A DNA stretch of 32,000 nucleotides from Propionibacteriaceae bacterium (GTDB lineage Bacteria > Actinomycetota > Actinomycetes > Propionibacteriales > Propionibacteriaceae): NCBI GenBank assembly GCA_031256725.1, contig JAIRQE010000018.1, positions 81,561-113,560 of the forward strand. Direction: 5' to 3'. Below, piece after piece: positions 7,682 through 26,180 of this stretch; position 1 is the first letter of the stretch; each line of letters begins with the position of its first letter. The position numbers were made by a program, and so were the translations under genes. The notes under the pieces are model-generated. The model saw only the letters and a program-made list of their open reading frames with translations. It was not told the DNA's origin and searched no databases.

Positions 7682-7724
7682 AAGAATGGGTGACGAGTTA
7701 TGAGGAAAGAAAGAAGCTCCAGCA

Positions 7725-8972: not shown

Positions 8973-8997
8973 TTGAATGGTTGAATAAGGATTAAGA

Positions 8998-10623
8998 ATG
9001 AACTTACAAGCAATGGAACCCACAGTGACACAATATGCAATCCAGATCACGGCCAAGGACCACGTTGAGATTAACCCTGAGATGCCGATTCCTGACGTGG
9101 GGCCTACGCAGATTCTGTTAAAGATTGAGGCCTGTGGGATCTGCTTCTCAGATACGAAGCTGATGCATGCCTTCGAGAATCATCCACGCAAGACACCCAT
9201 TACTGGTGGGTTGACGGAGGCTGAACTTGCCGAGATTCTCACCTATCGCCCAGGTGGGGAACCAGTGGTACCAGGTCATGAACCAGTGGCGAGGATCGCC
9301 CGCGTGGGGACCGAGGTTACTCGGTTTGAGGTGGGTCAGCGTGTCCTAGTTCAAACCGACTATCGACATATTCCAACTGTTGCTTCTAACGCAGCCTTTG
9401 GGTATGACTTCGATGGTGCCTTAGCCGAATATGCTCTCGTAGACGAGAGGATGGTGATTGATCCTCGAACTGATGAATCCCTGCTGATTCCCGTGACAGA
9501 AATCCCCTCCTCCTCGGCTGTGGCCCTGATTGAACCATGGGCCTGTGTTGAGACTGCTTACGCATGGCCAGAGCGCCAAGGGCCTCTCGTGGGTGGATCA
9601 GTCCTGGTTGTCACTGATGGTTGCTGCGTGCTTGAAGGGTTGGATGCCCTGATCGCTGGTTATGGGTCTCGTACAGATGTGGTCGACCTAGCCGAGATCA
9701 AGGAAGGATCGATCTTCGACGACATCATCTACGTGGGTGCGGATGCGGATGTTCTGGAGAAACTGGGGCCACACCTTGCCAACAGGGGGATCATGAACAT
9801 CATCACCTGTGGTCGTGAATTTGAGCGTCCGGTGAACATTGATGTCGGCAGGATCCATTACGACCTGATTCGCTATGTGGGTACCACTGGTTGCAATCCG
9901 TATGACGGGTACTCCTGGATCCCCGAAACCTGCGAACTTCGTCACAATGAATCCATTGCCATCATCGGGGCTGCTGGTCCCATGGGATTGATGCATACCG
10001 TTCGGGCAGCAACCATGGGGATCGAGGGTATCACCATTGATGCAGTCGATGTCAGTGATGAGCGCCTCAAGCGGCTGGAGGAGGTACTAGCCCCCATTGC
10101 GGCCAAGGCCGGGGTAGCATCACGTGTACTCAACTCCACAGCAACCCCCTTAGTGGAGAACTCCTATTCCTATGTTGCACTCATGGTGCCTGCGACCCCT
10201 CTTATCACCCAAGCGGTGTCCTTAGCCAGTGAGGGCGCGATCATTAACGCCTTTGCTGGCTTCGCAATTGGTACCACTGCCGCGATGGATATGAATGCCA
10301 TGATAGCCAAGAGGCTGTATGCCGTTGGTACCTCTGGGTCCCGGGTCCAAGATATGGTGACTATGGTGAGGCGACTGGAGGCTGGTCAGGTCGATACAAA
10401 CATCTCCCTGGATGCCATCACGGGTATTGCTGGTGTACTAGATGCAATCGAATCGGTCAATAATCGTACCTCGCAGGGCAAGATCATGGTCTATCCACAG
10501 TTGAAGGATCTAGGGTTATTAAGGTTAGTCGAGATTCCTGACAGATTCCCTGAGGTGGGAGCCCTCATGGATGGGGGATCATGGACCAAGCAGGCAGAAG
10601 CCAAACTATTGTCAATCGCGTAG
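8998..10623 (+). CDS. zinc-type alcohol dehydrogenase / MDR superfamily protein, unusually long (541 aa)
   Basis: TAAGGA lies upstream of ATG 8998. The GroES-like part carries CGICFSD and PGHEPVARI. A degenerate nucleotide-binding-like segment (VLVVTDGCCVLEGLDALIAGYG) is followed by a canonical one (IAIIGAAGPMGLMHTVRAA...DVSDERL). Confidence 0.7.
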   Translation: MNLQAMEPTVTQYAIQITAKDHVEINPEMPIPDVGPTQILLKIEACGICFSDTKLMHAFENHPRKTPITGGLTEAELAEILTYRPGGEPVVPGHEPVARIARVGTEVTRFEVGQRVLVQTDYRHIPTVASNAAFGYDFDGALAEYALVDERMVIDPRTDESLLIPVTEIPSSSAVALIEPWACVETAYAWPERQGPLVGGSVLVVTDGCCVLEGLDALIAGYGSRTDVVDLAEIKEGSIFDDIIYVGADADVLEKLGPHLANRGIMNIITCGREFERPVNIDVGRIHYDLIRYVGTTGCNPYDGYSWIPETCELRHNESIAIIGAAGPMGLMHTVRAATMGIEGITIDAVDVSDERLKRLEEVLAPIAAKAGVASRVLNSTATPLVENSYSYVALMVPATPLITQAVSLASEGAIINAFAGFAIGTTAAMDMNAMIAKRLYAVGTSGSRVQDMVTMVRRLEAGQVDTNISLDAITGIAGVLDAIESVNNRTSQGKIMVYPQLKDLGLLRLVEIPDRFPEVGALMDGGSWTKQAEAKLLSIA

Positions 10624-10638
10624 GCAAGGAGAAAATCG

Positions 10639-12273
10639 ATGGCTGACGTTATAGTGATGCCCCAACTGGGGAACACTGTTGAATCCTGTCTGGTGACCTC
10701 ATGGAGGGTTGCCGTGGGTGACACCGTGACCCCGAATACGATCATCGCTGAGATTGAGACAGATAAGTCCTCAATGGAGGTACCAGCCGGTGTGACAGGG
10801 ACAGTCCTGGCCCTGTTGGCCAATCAGGGTGACGAGGTACCAGTCAAAGCTCCCTTCTTCATTGTCGGAACCCAGGGTGAATCCATTGAGGACTTGGTTG
10901 CACCACTCCAGGTTGATGAACCTGCGGCACCCCAAGAGTCTCCTGCCCCTGTTGAAGAGGTACCAGCTGTTCTCCATGAGGATGGAACTGCTGTAGCCAA
11001 TGAGGATATGGATACCCAGGACCCAGATGTCGGTGGTACAGCTTCCCCTCGCGCTCGTCGTGCAGCACAAGAGGCGGGCCTTGAGATTTCAGGGATTCCA
11101 GGTACAGGCCCCGAGGGTAGAATCCTCATTAGTGATGTGAAGGCAGTGATCGAAGCCCGCGCCGCCGCATCTGTACCTCAGGAGCCCCCAGTTGATGTGG
11201 TCGAAGCAGAGGAACCCACTCCACGATGGTCAACTGGTAAGTTCCCTGAGGAGGAAATTCCCAGAACCCGTGCCGCCCAGGAGCATCCAGGAAATGCACG
11301 CACAGGAACAGGGATCGGTGGCAGAATTACTAGAGATGACCTCACCGAGGTTGAGGTCCAGCCCCTCCATGCGATCGCCGAGGATGAGATAGAGCCACAA
11401 CCCGAGCCCACTGCTGTACCAGAAGCCATTGAGCCTGAACCTGAAATAGAAACCGCATCCCCTGAAGTAGGAACCGAAGCAGAACTTGAAGGAACTGAAG
11501 CAGAGCCTGAGGAATCCGAGGATTCTTCAGCAGTTGCAGAGGGGAATGATTTCCCTGGACCTGTGACCGAGATCCCCCTGAAAGGAATTCGTAAGCTCGT
11601 CGCAGAACGCATGTTGATCTCCATGTCCAACCATGCCCAACTCTCCTTCGACACCTCAGCACCAGCAGCAGCCCTTCTCTCCTTACGAGCAAGGCTGAAA
11701 GCAGGGGATGAATCCCTTGGGATGAATCAGATCACTATCGGTGATCTCGTAGCCTATGCCGCTGTGAAGACCGCAATGAGGTTCCCCTCTATCAACGCGA
11801 CCCTCCAAGACCAGGTTCTCCGCAGTTATGAGACGGTACACCTCGGGCTAGCTGTGGATACTCCACGAGGGCTCTTGGTACCCACAATTCGTTGGGCGTC
11901 AACCATGAGTCTTCGAGAGTTCTCAGCCGAGGTAAAGCCCTTGGTTGCCCAAGCCCAAGCAGGGTCCATCAACCCGGATCTGCTGGCTGGTGCGACCTTC
12001 ACAGTGACCAATTTAGGGGCCTTCGGAATCGAATCCTTCACCCCTATTTTGAACTCTCCGCAGATAGCAATCCTCGGAGTCAATGCCATCACTCCAAGGC
12101 CAGTGATCAACCCGGATGGTAGTTATTCTGTCGAACAAAGAATCGGGTTCTCGCTCACTGTGGATCATGCTGTGGTGGATGGAGCTGATGCAGCGCGCTT
12201 TCTGAAGGCTCTCGTGGCCTTCATCACCGATATCGACGTGGCGATTCTCGCAGAAGGGACACATAATGGCTGA
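10639..12273 (+). CDS. dihydrolipoamide acyltransferase (E2) of a 2-oxoacid/acetoin-type dehydrogenase complex
   Basis: AAGGAG lies upstream of the ATG. It has one lipoyl domain (EIETDKSSMEVPA), a subunit-binding domain (ASPRARRAAQEAGLEISGIPGTGPEGRILISDV), a long acidic Pro/Glu linker and a catalytic domain with DHAVVDGADAARF. Confidence 0.85.
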   Translation: MADVIVMPQLGNTVESCLVTSWRVAVGDTVTPNTIIAEIETDKSSMEVPAGVTGTVLALLANQGDEVPVKAPFFIVGTQGESIEDLVAPLQVDEPAAPQESPAPVEEVPAVLHEDGTAVANEDMDTQDPDVGGTASPRARRAAQEAGLEISGIPGTGPEGRILISDVKAVIEARAAASVPQEPPVDVVEAEEPTPRWSTGKFPEEEIPRTRAAQEHPGNARTGTGIGGRITRDDLTEVEVQPLHAIAEDEIEPQPEPTAVPEAIEPEPEIETASPEVGTEAELEGTEAEPEESEDSSAVAEGNDFPGPVTEIPLKGIRKLVAERMLISMSNHAQLSFDTSAPAAALLSLRARLKAGDESLGMNQITIGDLVAYAAVKTAMRFPSINATLQDQVLRSYETVHLGLAVDTPRGLLVPTIRWASTMSLREFSAEVKPLVAQAQAGSINPDLLAGATFTVTNLGAFGIESFTPILNSPQIAILGVNAITPRPVINPDGSYSVEQRIGFSLTVDHAVVDGADAARFLKALVAFITDIDVAILAEGTHNG

Positions 12274-13651
12274 ATACGATGTCATCATTCTAGGCGGTGG
12301 GCCAGGCGGGTACATTGCTGCTGAAAGACTCGGTCATGGGTGCAAGTCTGTACTCCTGATTGAGAAGGACACCCTGGGGGGTACATGTCTCAATGTTGGA
12401 TGTATCCCAACTAAGGCACTCCTCAACTCCGTTAAACTCTATGAACATGCTCGTGACTCCAGTCAGTTCGGGGTCGTCACCGAGTCAGCATCCTATGACT
12501 GGGCCACCGTCCAGGAGTGGAAAAACAAGACGGTAACCACCCTTGTTGGTGGGGTTGCCCAAATGATGAAGAGACTCAAAGTCACGGTGGTTAATGGCGA
12601 GGGTCACATGACCAGTCCCACAACAGTCGAAGTTAATGGCGAGGAACACAGTGCTCTCGATGTCATCATTGCCACAGGTTCGCTACCAGCAATGCCACCG
12701 ATTCCCGGATCTGTGGACAATCCTTCAGTAGTGGATTCGACCAGATTATTGTCCATTGACCAGGTACCACCACGGCTGACTATCATCGGTGGGGGAGTCA
12801 TCGGTGTGGAGTTTGCCTCCATCTTCTCTCGTTTAGGCTCACGGGTTACCATCGTGGAAATGATGGATGAGATCCTTCCCTTCATGGAATCCGATCTCGC
12901 TGCACGTCTGAGAACCCAGATGCCAGCAGTTGATTTCCGTTTGGGTGCCAAGGTTGAAGCCATTGAGGGTACGACCGTGGTCTATTCCCACGATGAGGTC
13001 ACCGATAGGATTGAGGGTGATCTTATCCTCATGGCTGTTGGTCGTCGCCCACTCGTGAATGGATGGGGTGCAGACACTATCGGCTTGGATTATTCACCCG
13101 CTGGCATCACTGTGGACGACCAGATGCGTACCAACCTTCCTCATGTTTGGGCTGTCGGTGATGTGACAGGACGATCCCTTCTTGCGCATGCGGCCTATCG
13201 AATGGGCGAGATCGCTGCGGCACATATCCTGGATGGAACCGCCAAAGATCGTGGTCAAGTCATGAGATGGGACACCATCCCGTGGGCTTTGTACTCCTCA
13301 CCTGAGGCTGCTGGAGTGGGGCTCACTGAAGAGGAATGTACCAAGCGTGGGATCGAGGTGAATGCAACCACTGTGCCTCTAGTCCTTTCAGGGCGTTTTA
13401 TCGCTGAACATGGCTTGAGCCGTGCAGGGATGGTCAAGGTTGTTGCCGAAACCGAAACCAGGGTAATCCGTGGCATCCAGGTCATGGGGCCCTATGCACC
13501 AGAAATGATCTGGGGTGCTGCTGGGGTACTCGAAATGGAATTCACGATCGAGGATGTACGCCAGCTTGTCTTCCCTCATCCCACAGTTAGCGAAGGAATA
13601 CGGGAGGCAGTGTGGGCCTTCCCAGATAAGAAGAGAAACGAACAACGATGA
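12266..13651 (+). CDS. lpdA: dihydrolipoyl dehydrogenase (E3)
   Basis: It shows the FAD motif [11 protein letters not shown], the redox disulfide [16 protein letters not shown], the NAD motif [12 protein letters not shown] and the C-terminal HPTVSEG. The start overlaps the E2 stop by 8 nt. Confidence 0.9.
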
Positions 13652-16104
13652 CTAAGTCACTAATAGTTAACCCCCTTGAGGTACGTGCGAAGGGTTCCAT
13701 TCGCCCACCCGAGATCCCTGTCAACGCCTATCAGCTCGACCTTCCCACAGAGGTGGGCCGCTATGGTACAGACACCCTGATTCATGTTCTTCACGACATG
13801 ATCGTGATCCGAGAGTTCGAATCCATGTTGAACTCAATCAAGACCACAGGAGCATGGCAGGGGATCTCCTATGACCACGCTGGCCCAGCGCACCTGTCCA
13901 TGGGCCAAGAGGCTGCCGCTGTCGGTCAGGCACTCGAATTAGGTCCAGATGACTTCATCTTTGGTTCCCACCGTTCCCATGGTGAAATCCTAGCCAAGTG
14001 TTTCTCTGCTGCGCGCACAATGCCTGAGACTGATGTACGAACGATCATGGAGGGCTTCCTCAGTGGGGAGACCCTCAAATACGCCGAACATCTTCCCAAT
14101 AGTTCCGAGGCTGAGGTCCAAGCCAACTTCATTCTCTTTGGTACCCTCGCGGAGATCTTCGCTCGCAAGGCTGGGTTCAATAGGGGTATGGGTGGGTCCA
14201 TGCATGCTTTCTTTGCTCCCTTCGGGTCCATGCCCAACAACGCCATTGTGGGCGGTTCTGGGCCCATCGCCCAAGGCGCAGCACTATTCAAAAGGATCAA
14301 TTCACGCCCAGGGATCGTCGTCGCGAACATCGGTGATGCCTCCATGGGATGCGGGCCTGTTTGGGAGTCTATGGTCTTCTCCGCCATGGATCAGTTCCGT
14401 CAACTGTGGCCAGAATCAGCGGGCGGGAATCCGCCGATCCTGTTCAACTTCTTCAATAACTTCTATGGGATGGGTGGCCAAACCGATGGGGAAACCATGG
14501 GGTACGACATCCTGGCTCGCGTGGGTGCTGGAGTAAATCCTCAAGCCATGCATGCTGAACGTGTGGACGGGTACAACCCCCTCGCTGTTGCCAATGCAGT
14601 ACGCCGCAAGAAGGAGATCCTTCTCGCTGGACAGGGGCCTGTACTCCTAGACACGATCACCTATCGCTATTCAGGCCACTCTCCCTCCGATGCTTCAAGC
14701 TATCGAGTCAAGGAAGAGGTGGATCTGTGGGAGCAGATGGATTCCATTGAAGCCTACGCTACGACACTGGTCAATGGGGGGATTCTGTCCCCATCTCAGG
14801 TGGGTGAGCTTCGAGCTCGTATCGTTGACAAGCTCGCTCAGGTGTTGACTCTTGCTAGTGATGACCAGAAGTGCCCCAGGGTGGACGTACAGTTCATCGA
14901 GTCGGTGATGTATTCCAATGGGAAAGCCGAGGTTATGGGTACTGGCACCCCTGAACTCAGCCAGCCCTTGGCCGAGAATTCGCGAGTCAAAGCGATTTCG
15001 GGCAAGATCCGTAAAAACGTTGATGAGCAGGGCAAGCCTGTGTCCAAGGTGAAGATGTACCAGTACCGCGACGGTCTGTTCGAGGCCATGGCACACCGCT
15101 TCGCTATCGATCCAACCATGGCAGCCTGGGGTGAGGAGAACCGTGACTGGGGTGGAGCCTTTGCGGTCTACCGTGGATTGACCGAGTTGCTTCCCTATAA
15201 TCGCCTCTTCAATTCCCCAATCTCCGAGGCAGCCATTGTGGGTGCTGGTGTGGGTTATGCCTTGTGTGGTGGGCGCGCTGTCGTTGAGTTGATGTACTGC
15301 GATTTCCTGGGTCGTGCCGGTGACGAGATCCTCAACCAGGTTTCCAAGTGGCAGTCCATGTCTGCTGGGATCCTGACCATGCCTTTGGTGGTACGTATCT
15401 CTGTGGGCAATAAGTACGGGGCTCAGCACTCCCAGGATTGGTCGGCCATCCTCGCCCATGTGCCCGGTCTGAAGGTCTACTATCCTGCGACCCCCACTGA
15501 TGCCAAGGGGATGCTGAATCTGGCCTTGGCTGGTACAGACCCGGTCATCTTCCTGGAGTCCCAAAAGCTCTATGACGTTGGTGAAGAGTTTGAAGCTAAT
15601 GGTGTTCCAGTGGGGTACTACGAAACCCCCGAAGGGGAACCTGCGATCCGTCGTGAAGGTACCGACCTTACGATTGCTACCCTTGGGCCTACTGTGTACA
15701 CCGCGATGGATGCAGCCAAGGTTCTCCAGGAAAAGTATAACCTCTCAGTCGAGGTCATTGATCTTCGGTTTGCTGTGCCGTTGAATTACGATCCACTCTT
15801 GGCCTCAGTCAAGAAGACAGGGCGCTTGGTGCTCGCTTCCGATGCTGTTGAGAGAGGCTCCTTCATGCAGACCGTCGCTGCGACCGTTTCCCAGGTCAGC
15901 TTCGATGACTTGGATGCTCCAGTGGTGGTTCTGGGTTCCAGAAACCACATCACCCCTGCTCCAGAATTAGAGGAACTATTCTTCCCTCAGGTCGACACTA
16001 TCCTTGATGCCATCCATACAAGGATTCTTCCGCTCGAGGGGCATGTGCCCACCACAGACCAGTCGAATACTGAGAGTCTGAGAAGGGCCAAGTACGGCGT
16101 CTAA
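13648..16104 (+). CDS. fused E1 alpha-beta, thiamine-diphosphate-dependent dehydrogenase component (818 aa)
   Basis: ATG 13648 overlaps the E3 stop (ATGA). The N-terminal half is alpha-type ([15 protein letters not shown], ThDP motif [13 protein letters not shown]...[11 protein letters not shown]). The half from about aa 480 is beta-type ([51 protein letters not shown]). Confidence 0.85.
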
Positions 16105-16141
16105 GAAGATATGGTCTACGTGGATACGGGGACTAAAGTAT

Positions 16142-16364
16142 TTAGGCTCCGAACCCAACTGGCTGGGCATGTTCTTGACCGAATTCCAGGTATCCGATGG
16201 TTTCTGGGGGGGATGAGCATATGTCGGCCTGAGGCGTCGTCTAGGGTAAAAAGGGTGTCGGCCTTGCGGGCTTGCTCATATGCTTTGACCACGTCAGCAA
16301 TGGTGAGGTCAACAGTGAGTGTGACCTCGCGGGCAACATTGCGGATTCCGATCTTGATTTCTAC
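16142..16364 (-). pseudogene. DUF3107-family pseudogene (start codon lost, +1 frameshift)
   Basis: The minus strand reads GTA-EIKIGIRNVAREVTLTVDLTIADVVKAYEQARKADTLFTLDDASGRHMLIPP, then goes out of frame. The run is CCCCCCC here versus CCCCCC in the intact copy. The ATG of the intact copy (cat at 20568-20570) is tac here (16362-16364). Confidence 0.75.
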
Positions 16365-16399
16365 GGGGGTCCTTTTTAGATGATCAGCTGAAATCAGCC
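16142..16399. repeat. direct repeat, copy A (decayed) of the DUF3107 gene plus the last approximately 16 nt of the FHA gene
   Basis: Aligned by eye to 20349-20609, it shows about 15 differences over about 258 nt, including one extra G in a G-run and a 2-nt indel. Confidence 0.85.
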
Positions 16400-16433
16400 A
16401 TCCGACAACCTATGTGCATTATGTCAAGTCTGG

Positions 16434-17501
16434 TCAGCGGTACTTAAAGAAAGTGAATAGTTGGCTTTCTCGAATCAGTGAACAACCAATGACCGTTCCC
16501 ATGATAGCTCCTGATACGGCGGATACTAGGACTCGGACCCCTGTAAACATCACGCAAATGGTATCACTTAAGCTTCCCCAGCTTGTGACTATTACAATCG
16601 GAATACAAAAGATAGTAGCGATCGCCACCCAAGATATAGATTCGAATAGTAATTGCAGATGAAGAAAGAAGTGAGACACTCCAGCATGAAGGTTGCTGGC
16701 ATGTTCTAAGCGGCGTGTCCATACCGTAGTAACGGCCAATATTAGGCTAATGACGAGACTAATCAGAGGGGTCCATCGGGTTAACCGGTGATCATATCGG
16801 CCCACATCGTACACTGATGCATGTTGTGGGTTTAATTGAAAAATCTGTGTTTGTCTAGATGCATAATGAGGTATTAATGATAAATAGAGAAGCGACTTCG
16901 TTTGCTCAATTGTTGGCCACATCGTCACCCAACACTCATCAAATATCTCATCGGATGTGACCACCTGAAGTGCAGCAAAACCTAAACCTGATCGTCGCCC
17001 ATCTTCTGGATATCTATACATGCCGCTGATTGGAACCTCTCCCCGAGTTGTGTGAATTCTACCTTCGACAGCTAACCCGTATCGGTCAAAGACTTGATCG
17101 GAAACAACCAAACCAGGATCAAAGCCATGGTTGGCATTGACAACAAGAAAGAAACCAGGGGTAACTGAATACAACGGAATCGTTGTGCGTGGAAGAAGCA
17201 CATCAGTTAACCCACTGTGATCGTCCCGCAACGAACCCGATGCCAAGACACCTTCGACTGTACTCAGGGCATCACATGCATTCCCTGAGATCGCTTGCGG
17301 AGATTGGAGTATCCAGGTGGCACCTCCCTCGTTGAGATACGTATTCGCCTCATTGACAAACCCCCGCACGGTTGATTCTTCCACCCAAGCTAAAGTTCCA
17401 GTCAGAGCAACAAAGATAATAACCAACCTGATGAGGCGCGTTGTGCTAGATGTAATGTTTCGAAAGGCTTCGCGACCTGCTTCCTGCCAGTGTAGATTCA
17501 C
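16434..17501 (-). CDS. ABC transporter permease, FtsX/MacB-type
   Basis: 355 aa with a GTG start overlapping the ATPase stop (GTGA). The topology is one N-terminal TM helix (LVIIFVALTGTLAWV), an extracytoplasmic domain of about 200 aa, then three C-terminal TM helices. That is the MacB/FtsX layout. Confidence 0.65.
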   Translation of the reverse strand: MNLHWQEAGREAFRNITSSTTRLIRLVIIFVALTGTLAWVEESTVRGFVNEANTYLNEGGATWILQSPQAISGNACDALSTVEGVLASGSLRDDHSGLTDVLLPRTTIPLYSVTPGFFLVVNANHGFDPGLVVSDQVFDRYGLAVEGRIHTTRGEVPISGMYRYPEDGRRSGLGFAALQVVTSDEIFDECWVTMWPTIEQTKSLLYLSLIPHYASRQTQIFQLNPQHASVYDVGRYDHRLTRWTPLISLVISLILAVTTVWTRRLEHASNLHAGVSHFFLHLQLLFESISWVAIATIFCIPIVIVTSWGSLSDTICVMFTGVRVLVSAVSGAIMGTVIGCSLIRESQLFTFFKYR

Positions 17502-18175
17502 GATTCCTCCGTCAATAATTTCTGCTTCGCTAGCCGAGAACTCATCATAATGACGGGATTTGCTTCCCCAAGATCAAGCACATCGGTACATACATCTCGA
17601 GTCTCTCTGTCATGAGTAGCAACAACTACAATTGTTCCACTTCTTGCCAATCCTTCCAATGCACTATTAATCTCTTGGGCTGTTCGACGGTCTAATTGAG
17701 CTGTTGGTTCATCAAGTAATAGCAAGTCAGGATCGGAAGCCAAACCTCGCACAAGCATCAGCCGTTGAGCCTCTCCACCCGATAAAGAGCCAAACGGATT
17801 ATCTGCGACATGGCGAAGGCCAAATTGAGCCATCAAATGGAGGCTCGCTTCTTCTGCTTCGCGGCGTAGATATCCCTGGGCGATGAATGCAATCGCTACA
17901 TGATCGAGTGCTGTTCGCCGGGGCACTCCATACGGATTTTGGAAGACCCACCGTGTAGTGGAGATCTGATGTTGACAGAGAGTCCCGGTGATTGGCTCCA
18001 GCCAACCTGCAAGCATGGATAGGAGTGTCGATTTGCCCGAACCAGAAGGACCCACCAGGGCATAAACCCGGTTGGGTATTAGGGTGAATGATAGATCCTC
18101 AAAAAGTAGCCGATCTGGAGCAAAGCCAAATGCAATTCCAGCCGCTTCCACATAGAGTTCAGGCGTCTTTATCAT
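17498..18175 (-). CDS. ABC transporter ATP-binding protein (MacB/LolD-like)
   Basis: It has Walker A GPSGSGKST, the signature LSGGEAQRL, Walker B LLLLDEPT and the H-loop ATHD. Confidence 0.85.
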   Translation of the reverse strand: MIKTPELYVEAAGIAFGFAPDRLLFEDLSFTLIPNRVYALVGPSGSGKSTLLSMLAGWLEPITGTLCQHQISTTRWVFQNPYGVPRRTALDHVAIAFIAQGYLRREAEEASLHLMAQFGLRHVADNPFGSLSGGEAQRLMLVRGLASDPDLLLLDEPTAQLDRRTAQEINSALEGLARSGTIVVVATHDRETRDVCTDVLDLGEANPVIMMSSRLAKQKLLTEES

Positions 18176-18254
18176 AAGAAAGCCATACGTTTCCCATGGA
18201 CCACGATCCTAGGAAGGCAGAATATCCAATAGAAAAAAGATATTTTATAACTCA

Positions 18255-19316
18255 TTATTCGGAGCACTTCAGATCATGTGGGGGGTTGATGGCAACCTCA
18301 TGCGGTTGTTTTCCAGCGAAGGTGACGAAGGACTGACCCAACTCGGAAGATACGATAGTTACTGGCATTGGCTTGCCATCCCCAATAACGCATCCCAATG
18401 AAGCTCCTTGGGGTCGAATGGAAGCCGGTGGAATCACAGATACGTTGAGAGGTTCAACAAGTGTGTAGATTACTTGAATAGAATCAGTCGATCCCTGAGT
18501 GATACTTGCATCGACTATCGGTGAACTCGCCAAATCAAGCAAGGCTTGAGAATCAGTAATTGAACCATCGGAATTGACAGACAGAGTGACATCATCAATA
18601 GTGATATTTCTAGCTCCTTGGACGAGACGGGTTGAGCTGATGGCGATTCTAGCCGACACTATGTGTGGCTCGAATATCGCAAGAACTTCCCCTTGCGTAA
18701 TTGAAGCACCCATGCCAACGGGGCAACTTGCCAGGCGCAAAGAATCGGAAGGCAACCAACTCACATTATTCATATATATAAATCCGTCGGATAGGTTATT
18801 ATTTGGAGTTCCCGCTTCTTTGGCCATCTGTTTGAAGGCTCTTATTAGGTTCCGTGTTGCAAGTTCACTAACATCACCCTTAAACCATCCCAACCGCACT
18901 AACTCGTGAGACATAGCCTGAACATCAATTCCAGAATCACCCATACCAATGTCCCGCCACATTGGTATGGAGGTAGCCATCGAAATCGACGGGACGCCAT
19001 TAATAGCGAATAAGGACTGCCCAGAATTCACTGTATCGCCAACTGCACAACTGGAGTTGGTAATAATCCCAACTCCGGTCGACAAGAGCGCTCGCTCGGG
19101 ACCAAAGTCCAGCGAAAGACCAACCAATTGCCTATCATCAAACAATCTCTGAGTTACCGGGGCTGTCCCTGCGTTCACAGTTCCTGACAAAACATTCGGT
19201 GTTTCATTCCATAGTATGGCCCAAGCACCAGTGGCACCAACTATGACCAAGCATAAACCCAACATCAAACCCAGTATCACCCGATTTATCCTCCCCTTGT
19301 GTGAAGACGATGCCAT
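18255..19316 (-). CDS. membrane-anchored periplasmic-adaptor-like protein (HlyD/MacA type) with an inserted peptidoglycan-binding-like segment
   Basis: It has an N-terminal TM helix (VILGLMLGLCLVIVGATGAWAIL) and a lipoyl-like hairpin motif (VGDTVNSGQSLFAING...; later ITQGEVLAIFE). GIDVQAMSHELVRLGWFKGDVSELATRNLIRAFKQM resembles a PG_binding_1 repeat. It sits directly upstream of the ABC pair. Confidence 0.5.
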   Translation of the reverse strand: MASSSHKGRINRVILGLMLGLCLVIVGATGAWAILWNETPNVLSGTVNAGTAPVTQRLFDDRQLVGLSLDFGPERALLSTGVGIITNSSCAVGDTVNSGQSLFAINGVPSISMATSIPMWRDIGMGDSGIDVQAMSHELVRLGWFKGDVSELATRNLIRAFKQMAKEAGTPNNNLSDGFIYMNNVSWLPSDSLRLASCPVGMGASITQGEVLAIFEPHIVSARIAISSTRLVQGARNITIDDVTLSVNSDGSITDSQALLDLASSPIVDASITQGSTDSIQVIYTLVEPLNVSVIPPASIRPQGASLGCVIGDGKPMPVTIVSSELGQSFVTFAGKQPHEVAINPPHDLKCSE

Positions 19317-19366
19317 GTAAATCTCCTCTTAGGCTCCTAAGTCATTCTGTAACATGAAAATAACGA

Positions 19367-20002
19367 CTACCGTGTATTTGTTGGGTCGCTGTTGCATGCC
19401 CAGAACTTGTCAGCGTCCTCCGAAGGGTTTAAGGAACTGTACTCCTGAAAAAAAGCCCCTGTCTCAAATTCTTGAGCATAATCATCTGCAGAATATCCAT
19501 CAGGGCGAATTCCTACTCTAACAAGACATTCAGCCATGATGACATAGGGATCAATGTTGTTAGGATTAATTCTTACACCGTTGTAAAGGCCAGCAAGGGT
19601 GGTCCAGTCGATGTTTTTCTCGCAGACTTCAGTTAGTTTTTGGGCCCGTATCCCAGTTTCTTCAACTGATTCTCCAGTTAAAGAAGGCAAAAAGGTGTCC
19701 AGACTACCGTCAGTTCCAATTTTGTAGACTGTCAACCCAGAAGCCTGCAAACAATCACGAAGTGTGTCTTTAGCTTGGAGTATCTCTTCATCAGTTATGT
19801 TTCCATCTGCAAGTATCGCCTTCGCAAGATCAGATAATACTTCGGCTGACGCTTTTTCAAACTCTGCCACCCAGGGACCAGTCGTTTGAGCCTCACCATT
19901 GTTCATACTTGAAGGCTTTTGGGGGACTTCCGAGCAGGCGCACACAAAGACAAGCGCCATAAACACCATGACTACTTTCGCCAGACTATTGATCGAACCC
20001 AT
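19367..20002 (-). CDS. putative lipoprotein, function unknown
   Basis: It has a signal peptide with a lipobox-like VFVCAC|S, followed by an acidic domain with several Cys residues. It is the first gene of the islet cassette. Confidence 0.55.
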   Translation of the reverse strand: MGSINSLAKVVMVFMALVFVCACSEVPQKPSSMNNGEAQTTGPWVAEFEKASAEVLSDLAKAILADGNITDEEILQAKDTLRDCLQASGLTVYKIGTDGSLDTFLPSLTGESVEETGIRAQKLTEVCEKNIDWTTLAGLYNGVRINPNNIDPYVIMAECLVRVGIRPDGYSADDYAQEFETGAFFQEYSSLNPSEDADKFWACNSDPTNTR

Positions 20003-20028
20003 ATCTTTCTCTCCTACTATCAGTAAAA

Positions 20029-20077
20029 AAGAAGGATCAATGCCTCCTGATTACTCAAGAAAACAATGATCCTTCTT
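20029..20077. promoter_or_regulatory. inverted repeat upstream of the islet cassette (AAGAAGGATCA ... TGATCCTTCTT)
   Basis: Perfect 11-bp arms lie at 20029-20039 and 20067-20077, separated by 27 nt. The nearer arm is about 27 nt upstream of the lipoprotein start on the minus strand. Confidence 0.3.
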
Positions 20078-20348
20078 ATAGGTTGAAATCTTGTTCTTAT
20101 CTATACAGATAATACACACGAACTAGCAACCCTACCGAATTTCTGGCTTGCCTCCCAGATGCTTTCGCACCACATAGCATCCTTGGTGATGCGAGCCAGG
20201 GCTAAGCTCACCCAGACTGGATCATCAACTTCGCCGAAGGTCCTCGTGGGGAAGAAAGGGCACACGATTCTGGCCCCTTGTGACGGCTTTGGGGTTAGTT
20301 CTTCGTATTAATGCTCGAAGCCATAGTGCGACGGTCTTGTACGGTATC

Positions 20349-20570
20349 TTACGCTCCGAACCCTACTGGTCGGGCATGTTCTTGACCGAATTCCAGGTAT
20401 CCGATGGTTTCTGGGGGGATGACCATATGACGGCCTGAGGCGTCATCTAGGGTAAAAAGGGTGTCGGCCTTGCGGGCTTGCTCATATGCTTTGACCACGT
20501 CAGCAATGGTGAGGTCAACATTGAGTGTGACCTCGCGGGCAACATTGCGGATTCCGATCTTGATTTCCAT
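20349..20570 (-). CDS. DUF3107-family small protein
   Basis: 73 aa: MEIKIGIRNVAREVTLNV...YLEFGQEHARPVGFGA. This matches my recollection of the actinobacterial DUF3107 pattern (MEVKIG...VGFG). AAAGGA lies upstream of the ATG. Confidence 0.7.
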   Translation of the reverse strand: MEIKIGIRNVAREVTLNVDLTIADVVKAYEQARKADTLFTLDDASGRHMVIPPETIGYLEFGQEHARPVGFGA

Positions 20571-20609
20571 GGGGGTCCTTTTTCTAGATGGGGTCAGCTG
20601 AGATCAGCG
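20349..20609. repeat. direct repeat, copy B (intact)
   Basis: This is the partner of 16142-16399. It covers the intact DUF3107 gene, the 23-nt spacer and the last codons plus stop of the FHA gene. Confidence 0.85.
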
Positions 20610-21361
20610 GCAACAGCCGGGCGTACGACGATGCGGGTCCATGCGCCCACATAGATACGCATGTCTGGGGTTATTTGGGTACGAGCAGCAATAGGCTCAT
20701 CCGGTAGAGAGGCGCTTGACGAGGCCACAAAGGTACCATTGGCGGATTCAAGGTCGTTGACATACCAGTACCCATCAGCCCAGGTGAGAAAGGCTTGCCG
20801 GCGGCTACATCCAACATCAGGCTCGCAATCAATATCAGGGAAGATATTCCTTGATGCAGAGTGGCGTCCGATCAGCGCTCGATCTTTCAGACGGACAATC
20901 CTGGGAGGACCTTGGGCCGGAATAGGATCAGTGGACTCCTGGAAGGCGTACCACTGTGGGTCTACCCAGACCTCGGCAACCCATGCGCCGAACTTCGATG
21001 AGGGTGATGCAGGTATGGCTAAGGGAACCTCAGGAGTGGAGGAATCCTGCTCAGGTTGAGAAGCTTCTGGAGTCTCCTGCGCTTCTGGCATCGGATCCTC
21101 GACCTTCTGTGGGGTATCCGAAGCAGTCGGTGGGAGCCCCAATTCTGAACGCAGATCCTGGTCTGGAAGAGCACCTGTGGTGTAGTCATAACCACAGGAT
21201 TCACAAAAGAGTGCTGCTCCTGGGCGAGGGGATTCACAGTTGGGGCACACCGTCACCTCGACAGGTGTGGGCTGGGCCTGGGGAGCCTCCACAACGGGCA
21301 TGCCACATTGATCACAGAAATCTTGTGCCTTAGTTTCATGGCCTTCGCTACATAGTGCCAT
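20594..21361 (-). CDS. FHA-domain protein with an N-terminal double zinc ribbon
   Basis: The zinc-ribbon residues are C4/H8/C16/C19 and C39/C42/C53/C56. A Pro/Glu/Ser-rich linker follows. The C-terminal FHA carries LIGRHSAS, GCSRRQAFL and ESANGTFV. Confidence 0.8.
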   Translation of the reverse strand: MALCSEGHETKAQDFCDQCGMPVVEAPQAQPTPVEVTVCPNCESPRPGAALFCESCGYDYTTGALPDQDLRSELGLPPTASDTPQKVEDPMPEAQETPEASQPEQDSSTPEVPLAIPASPSSKFGAWVAEVWVDPQWYAFQESTDPIPAQGPPRIVRLKDRALIGRHSASRNIFPDIDCEPDVGCSRRQAFLTWADGYWYVNDLESANGTFVASSSASLPDEPIAARTQITPDMRIYVGAWTRIVVRPAVAADLS

Positions 21362-21363
21362 CT

Positions 21364-22644
21364 CTATCCCCTAATCCTTGTTGTCTTCGTGGAGGCTGTA
21401 TCAAGAGCCATCTCATCAGCCTTATCGATATTCTTCTTCAACTGAACTCGACCAGTAACTGGGTCATCAATGTCGACAACCCGCCCCAATCGTGTCGTCG
21501 CCTCCGCATTACCCGTTTCGGCGGCTAACTGTACTGCTCGCCCGAGTTTCTGGGTGGCTGTACGATCATCACCTTGGGCATGGGCAGCTAACCCCTCCTG
21601 GATGGCGGAAGCCAACTCTGTTTGACCCGTGTAATGGGCAACCTCAGGGCTGATCCTCGTTGTCAACCCAGCATCGGCTGACCATTTGGCCTTCACCAAT
21701 CCTTGGGTGAGGATCGAAGGACCTGTACTGAGCTGTACACGTGCAGCCAACTGTTCCGTACCTACAGCCTTAGCTGGAAGTCGTACACAGATGTGATAAT
21801 CGCGGGACTCATCCCCCCAAGCGCCTGTTGGGAAGGTGGCTGTCAAAGCATCCACAGGTGTACCCCTATGGGTGAGATCCTCAACAGTGGGTGAGACCTG
21901 GCGTACGAAAGAAATCTGAGCATTCTGCGGAATCCAAACACGCAACTGCGCGTCGGGAACACCTCGGCCCATGGAGCGGGCAATGAGTTCCTGGAAGATG
22001 CGGGGGAGATCCTTGGGGCTAGGAATTACGTCAACTGTCCCCAGCAGAGCCTGGGCAATCTTGCGGATCTCTGAGACCTGCCATTCAATCCCGATCCCTC
22101 GGCAATCAGCTTGGAATTCGCCCAAGCATTGACGAATCGAGGATTCAAGCTGGGTCACCGACTCATTGTGGTTCTCACCATCAGTGAGAAGGATGGCATG
22201 CTTGCCTGCAAGGGAGGGAATCGACGCAAACAGGGAACGAGCCAACAGAAGCCAGGATCCCATGGCTGTACCTCCATCAGCGCGGAATGCTGCAATGGCA
22301 GTCTTGGCCTCAGTCCTCGTTTGGGGGGACATACGTACCATGCCAGGCCCCGAGGTCACACGCGGATAGGCGAGGTAGGCACGATGGTTTCCAGCAATGA
22401 TGGAGAAGAAGGTGCCGTCAAGGATCGTATCCACAGCAACCATTGCGGCATCTTTGGCAGCCTGCATATTGACAAGACCCATGGATGCCGAGGTATCCAC
22501 GATGACGATCTCGCCGACATCGCCCACTCCAGTTTGACCAGCAGCACCTGCTTCTGAACAGTCGATTCGTACAATTGCATTGACATCGGTACTACCATCA
22601 GCGAGGAACTCGTTTTGGTAGACCATCGAGGTAAAGACAGCCAT
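21364..22644 (-). CDS. von Willebrand factor A (vWA) domain protein with a complete MIDAS motif
   Basis: MIDAS elements are IVIVDTSASMG (DxSxS), DGGTAMGSWL (Thr) and ILLTDGENH (Asp). The C-terminal approximately 200 aa are unassigned. Confidence 0.8.
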   Translation of the reverse strand: MAVFTSMVYQNEFLADGSTDVNAIVRIDCSEAGAAGQTGVGDVGEIVIVDTSASMGLVNMQAAKDAAMVAVDTILDGTFFSIIAGNHRAYLAYPRVTSGPGMVRMSPQTRTEAKTAIAAFRADGGTAMGSWLLLARSLFASIPSLAGKHAILLTDGENHNESVTQLESSIRQCLGEFQADCRGIGIEWQVSEIRKIAQALLGTVDVIPSPKDLPRIFQELIARSMGRGVPDAQLRVWIPQNAQISFVRQVSPTVEDLTHRGTPVDALTATFPTGAWGDESRDYHICVRLPAKAVGTEQLAARVQLSTGPSILTQGLVKAKWSADAGLTTRISPEVAHYTGQTELASAIQEGLAAHAQGDDRTATQKLGRAVQLAAETGNAEATTRLGRVVDIDDPVTGRVQLKKNIDKADEMALDTASTKTTRIRG

Positions 22645-22653
22645 AGATCAACC

Positions 22654-23853
22654 TTAGTCCGTAGGTCCAGATTCGCGACCATTATCATCATTGGTCGCCA
22701 GTATTTCAGTGTCAGATTGGGTAGTACCCTGAGCCGAACGATTCAATGCGACAGTGGGAGCATCAAGACTGATCGGAGTTGGATTGGGAGCCATGACGGG
22801 TACAGTCGGGTTATCGAGAACATCCATGGCCTCAGAGACGACCTGGGTCAAGGGTACCGATGGTATAGCAGAGGATTCAATACGCGCACAGGCGACGGTG
22901 ATATTGTCATGGCCGCCCTTCTCATTCGCCCAGGCAACCAAATAACCCGCCAGAGCTAAGGGGGAGGAGTGATCAAGGAAGTCAACAAGCTCCTTGATTG
23001 CCGTGGGTTCTGAAGCATAGTTCCACAGACCATCGGTACACGCGATCACCCATCCAGGATTTGTGACCCTCAAGGTGGATAAATACGGATCAAGATCAAC
23101 GGCATCACGCCCAAGCCATTTTGTGATCGTATGTGCGTAGACCGATGATTCCGCTTCGGCTCGTCCAGCACCAGAATCGATACCCACTTGTGCGAGGGAA
23201 TGATCCTTGGTGAGCAGGAGGGGCTGCGAATTGTCGGGTATCCAGTAGACGCGCGAGTCACCCAGATTGGCGCAATATATGGCATCCTTCTCAACGATGG
23301 TCATAGCAATGGTTGAGGCAGCTGAGTTTGTTGATGCGGGGTTCGTCTTGTCAATGACAGCCTGGTTTGCCGCCAGTACTGCTTGGGTCAAGGCCCCATG
23401 AAGGGCTGCTTCACGCGAGGAAGTGGTACCCGTACCCTGAGGGTTATTGGCCCACAGAAGTTCACAAGCAATATGGGCTGCCGCGAGGGAGGCGACATCT
23501 GAGTCTTCGGATGTGGTGACACCATCACAGACCACGAGTACTGCACGATCTCCTTCAGCCATACAGGCCATGGCATCTTCATTGCGGGCATGGGATATGC
23601 CAATGTCGCACACGGCTCCCACCCACTCGGCTGGTTCCAACTGAAAGTGTTCACGCAGACTCTTGGCCTTCTGACCGCATTGAAGACAGTAGGCATCTAT
23701 CCCCAGTTCGCCACCACAGGCTGGGCATGTGGAGGGATAGGCTGTGAAATCCTCTCGATGGGGGTTCGACGAAGGGGGATCCTGTGGTTGGGTTGCTTCT
23801 GGATCACCAGGATTCCACTCAACTCCGGGGGCGCCGCGATTAAACAGTGTCAT
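22654..23853 (-). CDS. PP2C-family Ser/Thr phosphatase with an N-terminal zinc ribbon
   Basis: The ribbon is CPACGGELGIDAYCLQCG. PP2C blocks present are ARNEDA, VVCDGVTTS, TDGLWN and GGHDNITVA. I chose ATG 23853, which overlaps the kinase stop (ATGA). A GTG at 23865 is the alternative. Confidence 0.85.
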   Translation of the reverse strand: MTLFNRGAPGVEWNPGDPEATQPQDPPSSNPHREDFTAYPSTCPACGGELGIDAYCLQCGQKAKSLREHFQLEPAEWVGAVCDIGISHARNEDAMACMAEGDRAVLVVCDGVTTSEDSDVASLAAAHIACELLWANNPQGTGTTSSREAALHGALTQAVLAANQAVIDKTNPASTNSAASTIAMTIVEKDAIYCANLGDSRVYWIPDNSQPLLLTKDHSLAQVGIDSGAGRAEAESSVYAHTITKWLGRDAVDLDPYLSTLRVTNPGWVIACTDGLWNYASEPTAIKELVDFLDHSSPLALAGYLVAWANEKGGHDNITVACARIESSAIPSVPLTQVVSEAMDVLDNPTVPVMAPNPTPISLDAPTVALNRSAQGTTQSDTEILATNDDNGRESGPTD

Positions 23854-26180
23854 AGTATGGACCACTTTCTCAAGGAATTAGCTTGGTCAATGAGTGCCGC
23901 TCGTTTGGCGGGGTCATGTTCGAGGGTTGCCTGTTGACGTAATATCGTCTCAAGTTTGGCTCTGACGTCGGCTTTAGTGATGGGTACTTCACCTATCATC
24001 GGAATTGTTGCTCCGCGGGCAGCCTTTCGATTGGCGAGACTCACGAGAGGCAGTACACGTTGGAAGATCTCCAGTTCCTGTTTGAGGCGATCCTCGGTGT
24101 TTGCTCCAGCAGACCGAATGGCCTCGTAGGCTCTCACAAGATCAGGGAGACCTTGACCAGCTTGGGTCAGGTAGGAAGCAGCGAGACGACGAGACTGAGA
24201 CCATCCACCTGAAGTTGTTGGAACAAGGTCGAGAGCATCCAAGACCCGTCGAGGATCATTGGAGCTTCCAGTCTTCTTGGCTCTCACACGGGCGAGTCCG
24301 AAGGCAGCACCAGCAACATAGGCTCCATCAGTGACTGAACAGATATGGTACAACTGTTCTGCTATCTCTAATTCTCCGCCCATTTCGCAGGCGACAGCGA
24401 GAGCAAACTTGGGGGCCAGTTCCCCAGGAATCTGCCCATAAACGGCATTGAAACAGGATTGGGCCTTCGTCCAATCAGCAGTATTGAGTGCAGCTAGCCC
24501 TTCAATCCATGCAGCCCGCCATTCCCAGGGATCCTGGGTGAGGATCTCGGATACCGTTGAGGTGACAGTGTCTGGTACTCCATTTTCTATGGCAGCCAGA
24601 CACAGAGCTAGTTGTACCTCTTGGGTCTTCGTGGGTGAGTTCAGCAGAGCTTGGTAGCGTGCGCGTGGTTCCATCGAAGGATCGATGGATGCCAGCATGA
24701 CCAACCCAGGATCTGAGGGTTCAGGCTTGAGTTTTGGTAGATGCTTCCAGGTGAAGACATCCGAGACCACTGTGGGTGCCTCAAAGAGATCCGAAGGGGC
24801 AGAGGTTGTCGCAGCAGTACCACGGGTAATGGCGACAGCCTCCCGCAGCACACCAAGCATCTGGTGTCTCATCTCATCCATGGATTGGAAACGATCAGAG
24901 GCATTGGTGGCACAGGCCTTGGCGATCAGTCTGTAGATAGAGTCGTACTGGGCGAAGATTGGTATCTCTTCAATGGGGGGCAGCGAGGTCTTGTAGGTTG
25001 TTTGGTACCCCTTCACCTCAGCACAACAGATGAGCAGGGTACGACCCACTGTGTACACATCGGAAGTGATCGTACAGCCCTGTGTTGATACCTCAGGAGC
25101 CTGATAACCGACGGTACCAAAGATCACAGAATCATCATCATCAATGGGACGTACCCCACCAAGATCAATGAGTTTCACGGAATCCTGGAGATGCATGAGA
25201 TTATCTGGCTTGAAATCGCAGTAGAGCAATCCCTGGTTGTGGAGGTAACTCATTGCAGGAAGGATCTCAAGAACATAAGCCAGAGCATGTTCCACGGGCA
25301 GAGGATCGTAAACCCCCTTGGCGGCCTCCATACGAGCCTTGAGAATCTGCTTGATGGAGCGACCACCCACGAACTCCATCACAATATAGGCCCCACCTTC
25401 ATGGGTGACAAAGTTATAGATTTCGACGATGAGGGGATGCTGGACTGTGGCGAGGAATCTTTGCTCAGTCATGGCAGCTTGCATGGATGCTTCATCGCCC
25501 ACATTCAACAGCCCTTTGAGTACCACCCAGCGATCCGAGACATTACGATCAGTGGCCAAGTAGATCCACCCCATACCACCGTGAGCAAGACAGCCTTTGA
25601 CTTCGTACTGCCCAGCAACGATGTCACCTTTGGAGAGCTTCGGGGTGAACGAGAAGGGCTTACGGCAGCTGGGGCAATACCCTTCAACTCGACCAGGTGA
25701 ATCCTTGGTTGAACGACCGACCTTCGCTTCGCAGTGGGGACAGAACCTCTTGTCTTCGGGTACCTCGGGATTCTTTAAGATTGCCGATTGGGGATCGACC
25801 ACAGGCTCGGGTGGGATTGTTGTGTACCCTGCTCCCAAGTGACCAGCGGCCCTTCGAGTATCGGCTAAGCGTGAGCGTGTTACGTCAGTACCTACGCGTG
25901 CTGATCCAAGACTCACTGTTCCTATACGACTGGTGGTTGCACCTAAGGCCGCCGATGGTGGGGTGGCTCCTGCTGGTGATCCGCAGGTGTCGCAGTACCC
26001 ATCTACGATACGCCCACGACAATCAGGCATCTGACAGGGACCTGAGGGTTTGAGAGTTGGTACATGTCCTGGTATACCACGCCCGGAGGGTGTTTGAGCA
26101 GCCTCACGTGGTGGCATACCGCAGACATTGCAGTAGCCATCGGAAATCTGTCCGGAACAACCAATTCGTGTGCATTTCAT
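23850..26180 (-). CDS. pknG: PknG-type Ser/Thr protein kinase (two extra N-terminal zinc ribbons, rubredoxin-like module, kinase domain, TPR domain)
   Basis: It is colinear with M. tuberculosis PknG as recalled. The rubredoxin module is CPHC...CPSC. Kinase blocks are GDIVAGQYEVKGCLAHGGMGWIYLA, VVLKGL, YVLEILPAMSYLH, the non-RD loop YCDFKPDN, DLG instead of DFG, and GYQAPE. The TPR region carries GELAPKFALA and AFGLARV. ATG 26180 overlaps the upstream stop (ATGA). Confidence 0.85.
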   Translation of the reverse strand: MKCTRIGCSGQISDGYCNVCGMPPREAAQTPSGRGIPGHVPTLKPSGPCQMPDCRGRIVDGYCDTCGSPAGATPPSAALGATTSRIGTVSLGSARVGTDVTRSRLADTRRAAGHLGAGYTTIPPEPVVDPQSAILKNPEVPEDKRFCPHCEAKVGRSTKDSPGRVEGYCPSCRKPFSFTPKLSKGDIVAGQYEVKGCLAHGGMGWIYLATDRNVSDRWVVLKGLLNVGDEASMQAAMTEQRFLATVQHPLIVEIYNFVTHEGGAYIVMEFVGGRSIKQILKARMEAAKGVYDPLPVEHALAYVLEILPAMSYLHNQGLLYCDFKPDNLMHLQDSVKLIDLGGVRPIDDDDSVIFGTVGYQAPEVSTQGCTITSDVYTVGRTLLICCAEVKGYQTTYKTSLPPIEEIPIFAQYDSIYRLIAKACATNASDRFQSMDEMRHQMLGVLREAVAITRGTAATTSAPSDLFEAPTVVSDVFTWKHLPKLKPEPSDPGLVMLASIDPSMEPRARYQALLNSPTKTQEVQLALCLAAIENGVPDTVTSTVSEILTQDPWEWRAAWIEGLAALNTADWTKAQSCFNAVYGQIPGELAPKFALAVACEMGGELEIAEQLYHICSVTDGAYVAGAAFGLARVRAKKTGSSNDPRRVLDALDLVPTTSGGWSQSRRLAASYLTQAGQGLPDLVRAYEAIRSAGANTEDRLKQELEIFQRVLPLVSLANRKAARGATIPMIGEVPITKADVRAKLETILRQQATLEHDPAKRAALIDQANSLRKWSIL

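Follow-up and report, generated by a model that had tools for sequence, protein, structure and literature searches.

Two MacAB-like exporters described from monoderm bacteria, Spr0693-0694-0695 of Streptococcus pneumoniae and YknWXYZ of Bacillus, combine in one operon a separate ATPase, a four-helix permease of the MacB/FtsX fold whose extracytoplasmic domain is large, a membrane-fusion adaptor and one accessory envelope protein. Published monoderm systems of this type confer protection from antimicrobial peptides or from the SDP toxin (PMC5768738, PMC4887032). The same parts list is encoded by a four-gene islet within a 32,000-nucleotide stretch of a Propionibacteriaceae bacterium (GenBank assembly GCA_031256725.1, contig JAIRQE010000018.1, positions 81,561 to 113,560 of the forward strand), referred to here in its entirety as the window. 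Unlike the known pumps, the islet has a permease that falls outside the Pfam and NCBIfam families, including FtsX and MacB_PCD, and for which only eight homologues were found. Its adaptor family carries a peptidoglycan-binding domain, which also sets it apart from the known MacAB-like pumps compared, and its accessory protein is a family-less, lipoprotein-like protein rather than YknW. The islet lies at the end of a conserved PknG operon between direct repeats of about 260 bp, each of which contains a copy of the DUF3107 gene. At this well-resolved locus, genes were gained without an integrase, the target duplication is unusually long and the cargo is a divergent MacAB-like exporter.

The arrangement around the islet can also be compared with described routes of gene gain and duplication. 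Campbell integration, as with suicide plasmids or certain naturally occurring circular DNAs, leaves the insert between direct repeats of a host segment, one copy of which is functional. Both features are shared by the islet, which however shows no sign of either a circular replicon or donor-specific alleles. Displacement arrays attributed to homology-facilitated illegitimate recombination (HFIR), such as those of Rhs, contact-dependent inhibition (CDI) and type VI secretion system (T6SS) effector-immunity loci (PMC5361080), share with the islet a 3' stub on the displaced copy and recurrent gains at an operon end. In contrast to these arrays, the islet genes are not toxin-immunity modules and only one displaced copy is present. 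Furthermore, an array exchanges its old module for the incoming one, whereas here orphan and intact gene are copies of one and the same gene. In transformation-triggered merodiploidy and unequal sister-chromatid exchange, a duplication arises when a single incoming fragment is paired, out of register, with two chromatids (Johnston et al. 2013, PMC3784515). This topology is the one proposed below for the islet. The merodiploid duplications described there span 100-900 kb and need homologous repeats, whereas the islet has 260 bp and non-homologous joints.

Direct repeats around a foreign islet

A single long direct repeat encloses the islet. It was found by pairwise alignment and by an independent repeat finder over positions 15900-20900, an interval in which no other repeat exceeds 31 nt. 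The left copy is 257 nt and the right copy 260 nt long, and each contains the entire DUF3107 gene, a spacer and the final 15 nt of the FHA gene (four codons and the stop codon). The repeat copies and the islet are arranged as follows.

16142-16398, minus strand: left repeat copy (alignments; repeat families D1, D2 and D14)
16142-16364, minus strand: DUF3107 pseudogene of the left copy (alignment)
16365-16383, minus strand: spacer of the left copy (alignment)
16384-16398, minus strand: copy of the FHA 3' end in the left copy, 15 nt with stop codon (alignment)
16399-20348, minus strand: inserted islet, 3950 nt, GC content 0.469 (composition; absence from the sites of relatives)
20349-20608, minus strand: right repeat copy (Pfam PF11305; alignments)
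20349-20570, minus strand: intact DUF3107 gene of the right copy (Pfam PF11305)
20594-20608, minus strand: authentic FHA 3' end, following the 23-nt spacer of the right copy (alignment)

Between the two copies there are 12 substitutions, a single 1-nt indel and, within the spacer, two indels of 2 nt, which makes 15 events over 18 alignment columns and an identity of ~94%. In the right copy the DUF3107 open reading frame (ORF) is intact and encodes 73 residues, with a full-length match to Pfam PF11305 (residues 1-72 of 73, E 5.8e-22). In the left copy the start codon is destroyed, with tac at 16362-16364 where the right copy has cat (ATG to GTA on the coding strand), and one additional G within a G-run at ~16206 shifts the frame by +1. 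Owing to these two lesions the left copy is a DUF3107 pseudogene. A preliminary description of this DNA had reported direct repeats with about 15 differences, each spanning DUF3107, the spacer and the final FHA codons with the stop. It had also described the right copy as intact and the left as lacking its ATG and frameshifted by an extra G. The alignment and the domain match bear out each of these points, and the starts given for the repeats were correct, although the ends (16399 and 20609) lay one base too far.

Five outgroups indicate in which copy the changes arose. At ~70% identity they were used to polarise only the non-synonymous and disabling states, and the four synonymous differences are left unassigned. 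Both disabling lesions are derived in the left copy, as are its non-synonymous states (N to T, V to L and R to Q). The substitutions divide into four synonymous and six non-synonymous, small numbers whose ratio fits neutral decay of the left copy together with a few silent changes in the right. The copies are 94% identical to one another at the DNA level versus ~70% to the nearest other lineages, and their GC contents of 0.535 and 0.536 are host-like. For these reasons both copies derive from this host lineage, and it is unlikely that a foreign element natively carried its own DUF3107 homologue to the site. An exact-sequence look-up returned no identical DUF3107 protein.

The DNA between the repeats is compositionally foreign. 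Its GC content of 0.469, against 0.538 in the remainder of the window, is the lowest among all 3.9-kb segments and lies 6.6 standard deviations under the 196 segments that do not overlap the islet. Tetranucleotide distances are about twice the background (0.021-0.024 versus 0.010-0.014 elsewhere), and GC at third codon positions (GC3) is 0.40-0.45 in the four islet genes versus 0.51-0.62 in neighbouring genes. The AT-richness noted in the preliminary description is therefore real and the islet stays distinct from the core by all three measures, although the 43% GC taken from two sampled lines was slightly low.

Signatures of mobility were sought throughout the islet. No integrase, transposase, recombinase, replication, partition or transfer domain was found by Pfam or NCBIfam in any islet ORF, and no tRNA or tmRNA in the 32-kb window. 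Rfam families are likewise absent, and the two ends of the islet lack terminal inverted repeats. Nucleotide searches (blastn) with the islet gave no match in 72,556 plasmids or 50,697 phages. Four genes and a 346-nt leader fill the islet. Target duplications left by insertion sequences and transposons are short (2-14 bp). The earlier view that the repeat is no transposon target duplication agrees with its length of ~260 bp and with the lack of a transposase and terminal inverted repeats, and the domain searches and tRNA scan likewise match the earlier statement that integrase, transposase and tRNA are missing. The FHA stop codon sits in a palindrome, TCAGCTGA, which occurs in both copies (20594-20608 and 16384-16398) and is flanked by a TCAGC direct repeat. 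Junction B, where the islet meets the FHA tail of the left copy, falls exactly at the end of this motif.

The insertion site in related genomes

The repeats are bordered on both sides by native genes of the host. These flanks, along with the spacer that separates the left copy from the neighbouring dehydrogenase gene, are as follows.

13648-16104, plus strand: E1 dehydrogenase gene, fused alpha/beta, 818 aa, native left flank, convergent with DUF3107 (Pfam E1_dh, Transket_pyr, Transketolase_C)
16105-16141, no strand: native 37-nt spacer from the E1 stop to the stop of the DUF3107 pseudogene (sequence)
20594-26180, minus strand: native right flank with FHA/zinc-ribbon, VWA, PP2C and PknG genes (Pfam; conserved order in loci L084-L091)
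20594-21361, minus strand: FHA/zinc-ribbon gene (Pfam)

The operon order TelA...AAA...PknG-PP2C-VWA-FHA-DUF3107 is conserved, and DUF3107 is the last gene in all relatives. The compared loci and contigs, labelled L0xx or L1xx, were checked by tblastn after an FHA protein search and a metagenome scan, and their sample names imply that the relatives come largely from termite-gut metagenomes. The nearest FHA homologues belong to uncultured Propionibacteriaceae and reach at most 66% identity over the whole protein, with 77-78% in the C-terminal FHA domain. A sister strain was sought through the FHA metagenome scan, which gave none above ~65% whole-length identity.

The empty site, consisting of FHA, a single DUF3107 and a convergent E1 gene, is present in at least eight related contigs (L088, L090/L109, L097, L100, L102, L105, L106 and L108). 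The gap between DUF3107 and E1 in these relatives is mostly a few tens of nucleotides, with larger gaps of up to ~230 nt in L100 and L106. No second DUF3107 copy was seen in the available DNA of the surveyed DUF3107-bearing related loci. In the window each repeat copy retains one native neighbour, the left lying 37 nt from E1 and the right 23 nt from FHA, and the E1 protein is 74-78% identical to the E1 found directly after DUF3107 in L085, L088 and L090. As relatives show the empty site and none carries two DUF3107 copies, comparison of the loci confirms the islet as an insertion into what would ancestrally have been a contiguous FHA-DUF3107-E1 site. The preliminary description had predicted such an empty site, and the opposing outcome that it named, relatives with both copies and native sequence between them, was seen in none.

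A scan of genomes with the E1 protein gave 80 loci with a dehydrogenase operon, from Propionibacteriaceae, Actinomycetaceae and many spirochaete metagenome-assembled genomes (MAGs), none of which has DUF3107 or FHA nearby. Homologues of the fused 818-aa E1 with 63-72% identity occur in many Treponema and Spirochaetia MAGs (L014-L080), several of them from termite gut. This similarity suggests that phyla living in the same habitat have exchanged the dehydrogenase operon.

The end of the PknG operon appears from these comparisons to be a recurrent site of gene gain. A PIN toxin-antitoxin pair, an Rce1-like gene, ThrS and Rpe directly follow DUF3107 in L084 and L091. In L096 (7631-16565), ~8.9 kb separate DUF3107 from the convergent E1, the same position as the islet of the window. 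This insert encodes an epimerase/DUF1731 protein, a HAD hydrolase, a glucosamine-6-P-isomerase/6PGL-like protein, a sugar ABC importer and a LacI regulator. L096 also has a stretch of lower GC at 8.5-9.5 kb. A 2.4-kb insertion with an M4 peptidase gene (weak Emfourin match) and a 115-aa ORF lies between FHA and DUF3107 in L085 (10807-13198), L086, L087 and L094, where DUF3107 still adjoins E1; the GC content of the L085-type relative is ~0.67. None of the other insertions at this operon end, that of L085 included, is flanked by a duplication, so the duplication is specific to the event in the window.

The window may itself hold an earlier gain at this site. Its positions 4809-16104 carry a block of ~12 kb, FGGY kinase-SDR-ADH-E2-E3-E1, which is shared with L085, L088 and L090, and Rpe, ThrS and PIN lie at 287-3566. 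The dehydrogenase block looks like an earlier acquisition at this operon end because Rpe-ThrS-PIN adjoin DUF3107 in L084 and L091 but sit beyond the block in the window. A second, weaker GC dip (0.47-0.50) is present at 2501-4500 of the window, around the PIN gene (3147-3566) and an unannotated 230-aa ORF (4090-4782). At the other end of the operon, two long minus-strand ORFs without a Pfam match, 26177-27361 and 27271-28557, share an overlap of ~90 nt; conserved counterparts lie upstream of PknG in all relatives.

Origin of the islet and its repeats

The insert lies precisely at the joint of the two duplicated segments, with the stop codon of the right copy on one side and the FHA tail of the left on the other, and no duplicated base is lost on either side. 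Duplication and insertion are therefore most likely one event, and the islet may well have arisen by a single illegitimate capture of foreign DNA that duplicated its target. In the course of events that we infer, the PknG-PP2C-VWA-FHA-DUF3107 operon would have ended a few tens of bases from the convergent E1 gene. The operon end would then have captured 3.95 kb of DNA from a donor of lower GC content, probably another actinobacterium. This would have been one non-site-specific event that also duplicated 257-260 bp of the target, namely the whole of DUF3107 and the spacer together with 15 nt from the FHA 3' end. Most likely, the two ends of the foreign fragment would have been joined illegitimately to positions ~260 bp apart, whether on sister chromosomes, by template switching at a replication fork or during repair of a staggered break. 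Joining of this kind would leave the insert exactly on the duplication joint. The FHA-proximal right copy would have remained functional in the operon, while the E1-proximal left copy, severed from it, would have decayed by loss of its start codon, a frameshift and three amino-acid changes.

Several observations weigh against this capture. Junction B has no microhomology, and junction A has only the 4-nt GTAT. Differences between the copies are rather denser toward both repeat ends (~10% in the spacer, ~5% in the coding part), a pattern that would also fit two diverged functional alleles, although the contrast is not significant at these numbers. With the nearest FHA homologue at 66%, the alleles of the two copies cannot be assigned to donor and recipient, and capture in situ is not separable from Campbell integration or displacement. 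The contig comes from a metagenome assembly. To our knowledge, target duplications of ~260 bp through illegitimate capture have rarely been documented in bacteria.

The Campbell-type insertion put forward in the preliminary description is rather unlikely. It would begin with a circle carrying the islet and a ~260-bp homologue of the truncated FHA gene, spacer and DUF3107, which would recombine with the chromosomal DUF3107 in a RecA-dependent manner. The proposal fits the repeat topology, since direct repeats bracketing an insert are exactly what a single crossover produces. In addition, 260 bp at 94% identity is long enough for RecA, and alleles that diverged while functional would be expected to differ somewhat more at their less conserved ends. 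However, the islet has no replication, transfer or integration genes and no similarity to plasmids or phages. As both copies are of host type, at 94% mutual identity versus ~70% to others, the circle would have to be of chromosomal origin, from a sister strain with the islet already in place beside DUF3107. A double crossover via FHA/DUF3107 and E1 would be far likelier from such a strain and would leave no duplication, so that two rare steps would be invoked where one suffices. Displacement by HFIR is doubtful to much the same degree. Here a linear FHA-DUF3107-islet fragment from a sister strain would anchor in PknG/FHA/DUF3107 and its non-homologous end would join 15 nt before the recipient FHA stop, pushing the recipient's truncated FHA and DUF3107 downstream, where they would be orphaned and decay. 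The left copy does keep a short 3' stub of the upstream gene in its 15-nt FHA tail, a hallmark of displacement arrays (PMC5361080); the decayed copy is the operon-distal one, and the operon end is a recurrent gene-gain site in relatives. Set against this, the donor would need the islet directly after the DUF3107 stop and no such strain is known, the duplication would require two chromosome copies or replication, and junction B lacks microhomology. Both routes are less parsimonious than illegitimate capture because both require a donor with the islet already beside DUF3107.

All explanations besides illegitimate capture, Campbell integration and displacement are, taken together, quite improbable. 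An alternative in the preliminary description was a tandem duplication invaded later by foreign DNA. Tandem duplications are common, a redundant copy tolerates damage and the end state is compatible with this order of events. Yet for an independent insertion the chance of landing exactly on the joint of a 260-bp duplication of truncated FHA and DUF3107 would be roughly one in several hundred. Tandem duplications this short are also unstable and as a rule soon lost, and no relative shows the tandem state, all of which makes two separate events very improbable. Only slightly more credible is the remnant of an integrase-driven island or prophage with attachment (att) sites in the repeat and a deleted integrase. 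Integrative elements often bring along a copy of the target gene's 3' end and give rise to direct repeats, and the palindrome at the FHA stop is located at junction B. However, the searches found neither a fragment of an integrase nor a tRNA, nor any resemblance to phages or plasmids, and the four genes and 346-nt leader leave no space for decayed genes. The repeat moreover covers a whole upstream-oriented gene, unlike the usual 3'-end reconstitution, and at least 80 loci show no integrase-bearing related element at FHA/DUF3107. An assembly artefact joining strain variants can hardly account for the locus either. The contig is of the MAG type and repeats of 94% identity can confuse assemblers, but junction B joins the islet to an FHA tail of 15 nt, far shorter than an assembler k-mer, and the flanks are continuous on both sides. 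The left copy has private lesions (start loss, frameshift and spacer indels), and a chimera of two strains would not produce such a pseudogene.

A further, improbable idea is that the islet is a minimal non-autonomous cassette that uses the DUF3107 and FHA stop region it carries as a RecA-dependent homing module. If this were true, a single crossover would insert the cassette at the PknG operon end and recombination between the 260-bp repeats could release it again, and it would represent an integrase-free, homology-targeted mobile cassette among termite-gut-type Propionibacteriaceae.

A four-gene exporter cassette

All four islet genes lie on the minus strand and are preceded by a non-coding leader.

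16434-17501, minus strand: permease, 355 aa, MacB/FtsX (type VII ABC, ATP-binding cassette) fold (AlphaFold2 and Foldseek)
17498-18175, minus strand: ABC ATPase, 225 aa (Pfam ABC_tran PF00005)
18255-19316, minus strand: membrane-anchored homologue of periplasmic adaptors (membrane fusion proteins), 353 aa (AlphaFold2 and Foldseek)
19367-20002, minus strand: lipoprotein-like protein, 211 aa, N-terminus MGSINSLAKVVMVFMALVFVCAC... (sequence)
20003-20348, minus strand: islet leader, non-coding, 346 nt (fold; terminator-like scan)

The permease start overlaps the ATPase stop by 4 nt. The permease has no Pfam (E <=0.01), NCBIfam (E <=1) or PDB sequence match, including to FtsX PF02687 and MacB_PCD PF12704. 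Its AlphaFold2 model (pLDDT 83.6) shows transmembrane helix TM1 at residues 20-57, a large extracytoplasmic alpha/beta domain at 61-237 and TM2-4 as helices at 240-261, 277-307 and 314-342. Foldseek matches this model to MacB (5gko/5lil), Spr0694-0695 (5xu1), LolCDE and HrtBA at E 4e-11 to 1e-8, as well as to FtsX, with probability 1.0; the match to 5xu1 has E 5e-11. The nearest of the permease homologues, 51% identical, lies on a short contig (L083, 1-3691) that apparently holds two consecutive ATPase-permease units, the first ATPase being truncated near the contig start. This arrangement hints at tandem paralogues of the permease family.

The ATPase matches PF00005 with E 5.3e-27 over profile positions 2-137 of 137 and scores under every NCBIfam equivalog cut-off. 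The adaptor begins with an N-terminal membrane helix, and its AlphaFold2 model (pLDDT 93.4) is matched by Foldseek to CusB, AcrA, MexA, MacA and BesA at E 4.5e-10 to 1e-4, with E 1e-9 to MacA/AcrA-type adaptors. A search over 1.8 billion representatives gave 1924 adaptor homologues. PF01471 (PG_binding_1) is present in 19 of 50 sampled family members, and the family profile weakly matches lipoyl and peptidoglycan-binding chains. From these matches, the peptidoglycan-binding domain appears to occupy the place of the hairpin of Gram-negative adaptors. The lipoprotein-like protein has no Pfam or NCBIfam match.

The leader contains a hairpin followed by a U-run at 20077-20029 on the minus strand, 25 nt ahead of the lipoprotein start (-34.7 kcal/mol, z -3.6), which was also picked up by the terminator-like scan. 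It matches no Rfam family, and no promoter was found on its minus strand by a sigma-70 scan, which covers actinobacterial promoters poorly. Small leader ORFs at 20101-20265 (minus) and 20159-20311 (plus) have no family match and are treated as non-coding. The hairpin may act as a terminator or attenuator controlling read-through out of the PknG operon, and the islet may be expressed by such regulated read-through from the host operon.

Taken as a set, the four genes are predicted by these models to encode a MacAB-like ABC exporter of a monoderm. Against this assignment, the permease and adaptor are placed by predicted folds and not by membership of a sequence family, with TM-scores of 0.3-0.4 owing to domain orientation. 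By analogy with YknWXYZ and Spr0693-0695, we infer that the cassette probably expels an antimicrobial peptide or another envelope-active compound.

A homologous cassette is present in another Propionibacteriaceae MAG (L081) in the same order, with three lipoprotein paralogues followed by adaptor, ATPase and permease. Identities between the two cassettes are 39-60%, the ATPases being 60% identical. The L081 cassette lies between unrelated genes and has no flanking repeats. Its different context without a repeat suggests that the cassette travels as a module with no insertion signature of its own. As duplications are lacking both around the L081 cassette and around the L085 insertion, the duplication is a property of neither the cassette nor the site.

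The locus is a clear though fairly ordinary instance of gene gain, and nothing about it overturns current understanding. It is of value as a clean natural gain without a mobility gene that displays the duplicated target with both junctions, together with a dated pseudogene and, in relatives, several empty sites. Cases of this kind help in judging what share of horizontal acquisition proceeds by illegitimate or homology-assisted capture as opposed to dedicated elements. The repeats also bear on the future of the islet in its host. At 260 bp they are long enough that RecA-mediated recombination could delete the islet precisely and restore a single DUF3107 gene, and the population may for this reason be polymorphic at the locus. 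Within the MacB/FtsX superfamily the cargo represents an additional permease family, very divergent and rarely encountered, and the pairing of this permease with a peptidoglycan-binding adaptor is relevant to how tripartite-type pumps work in bacteria that lack an outer membrane.

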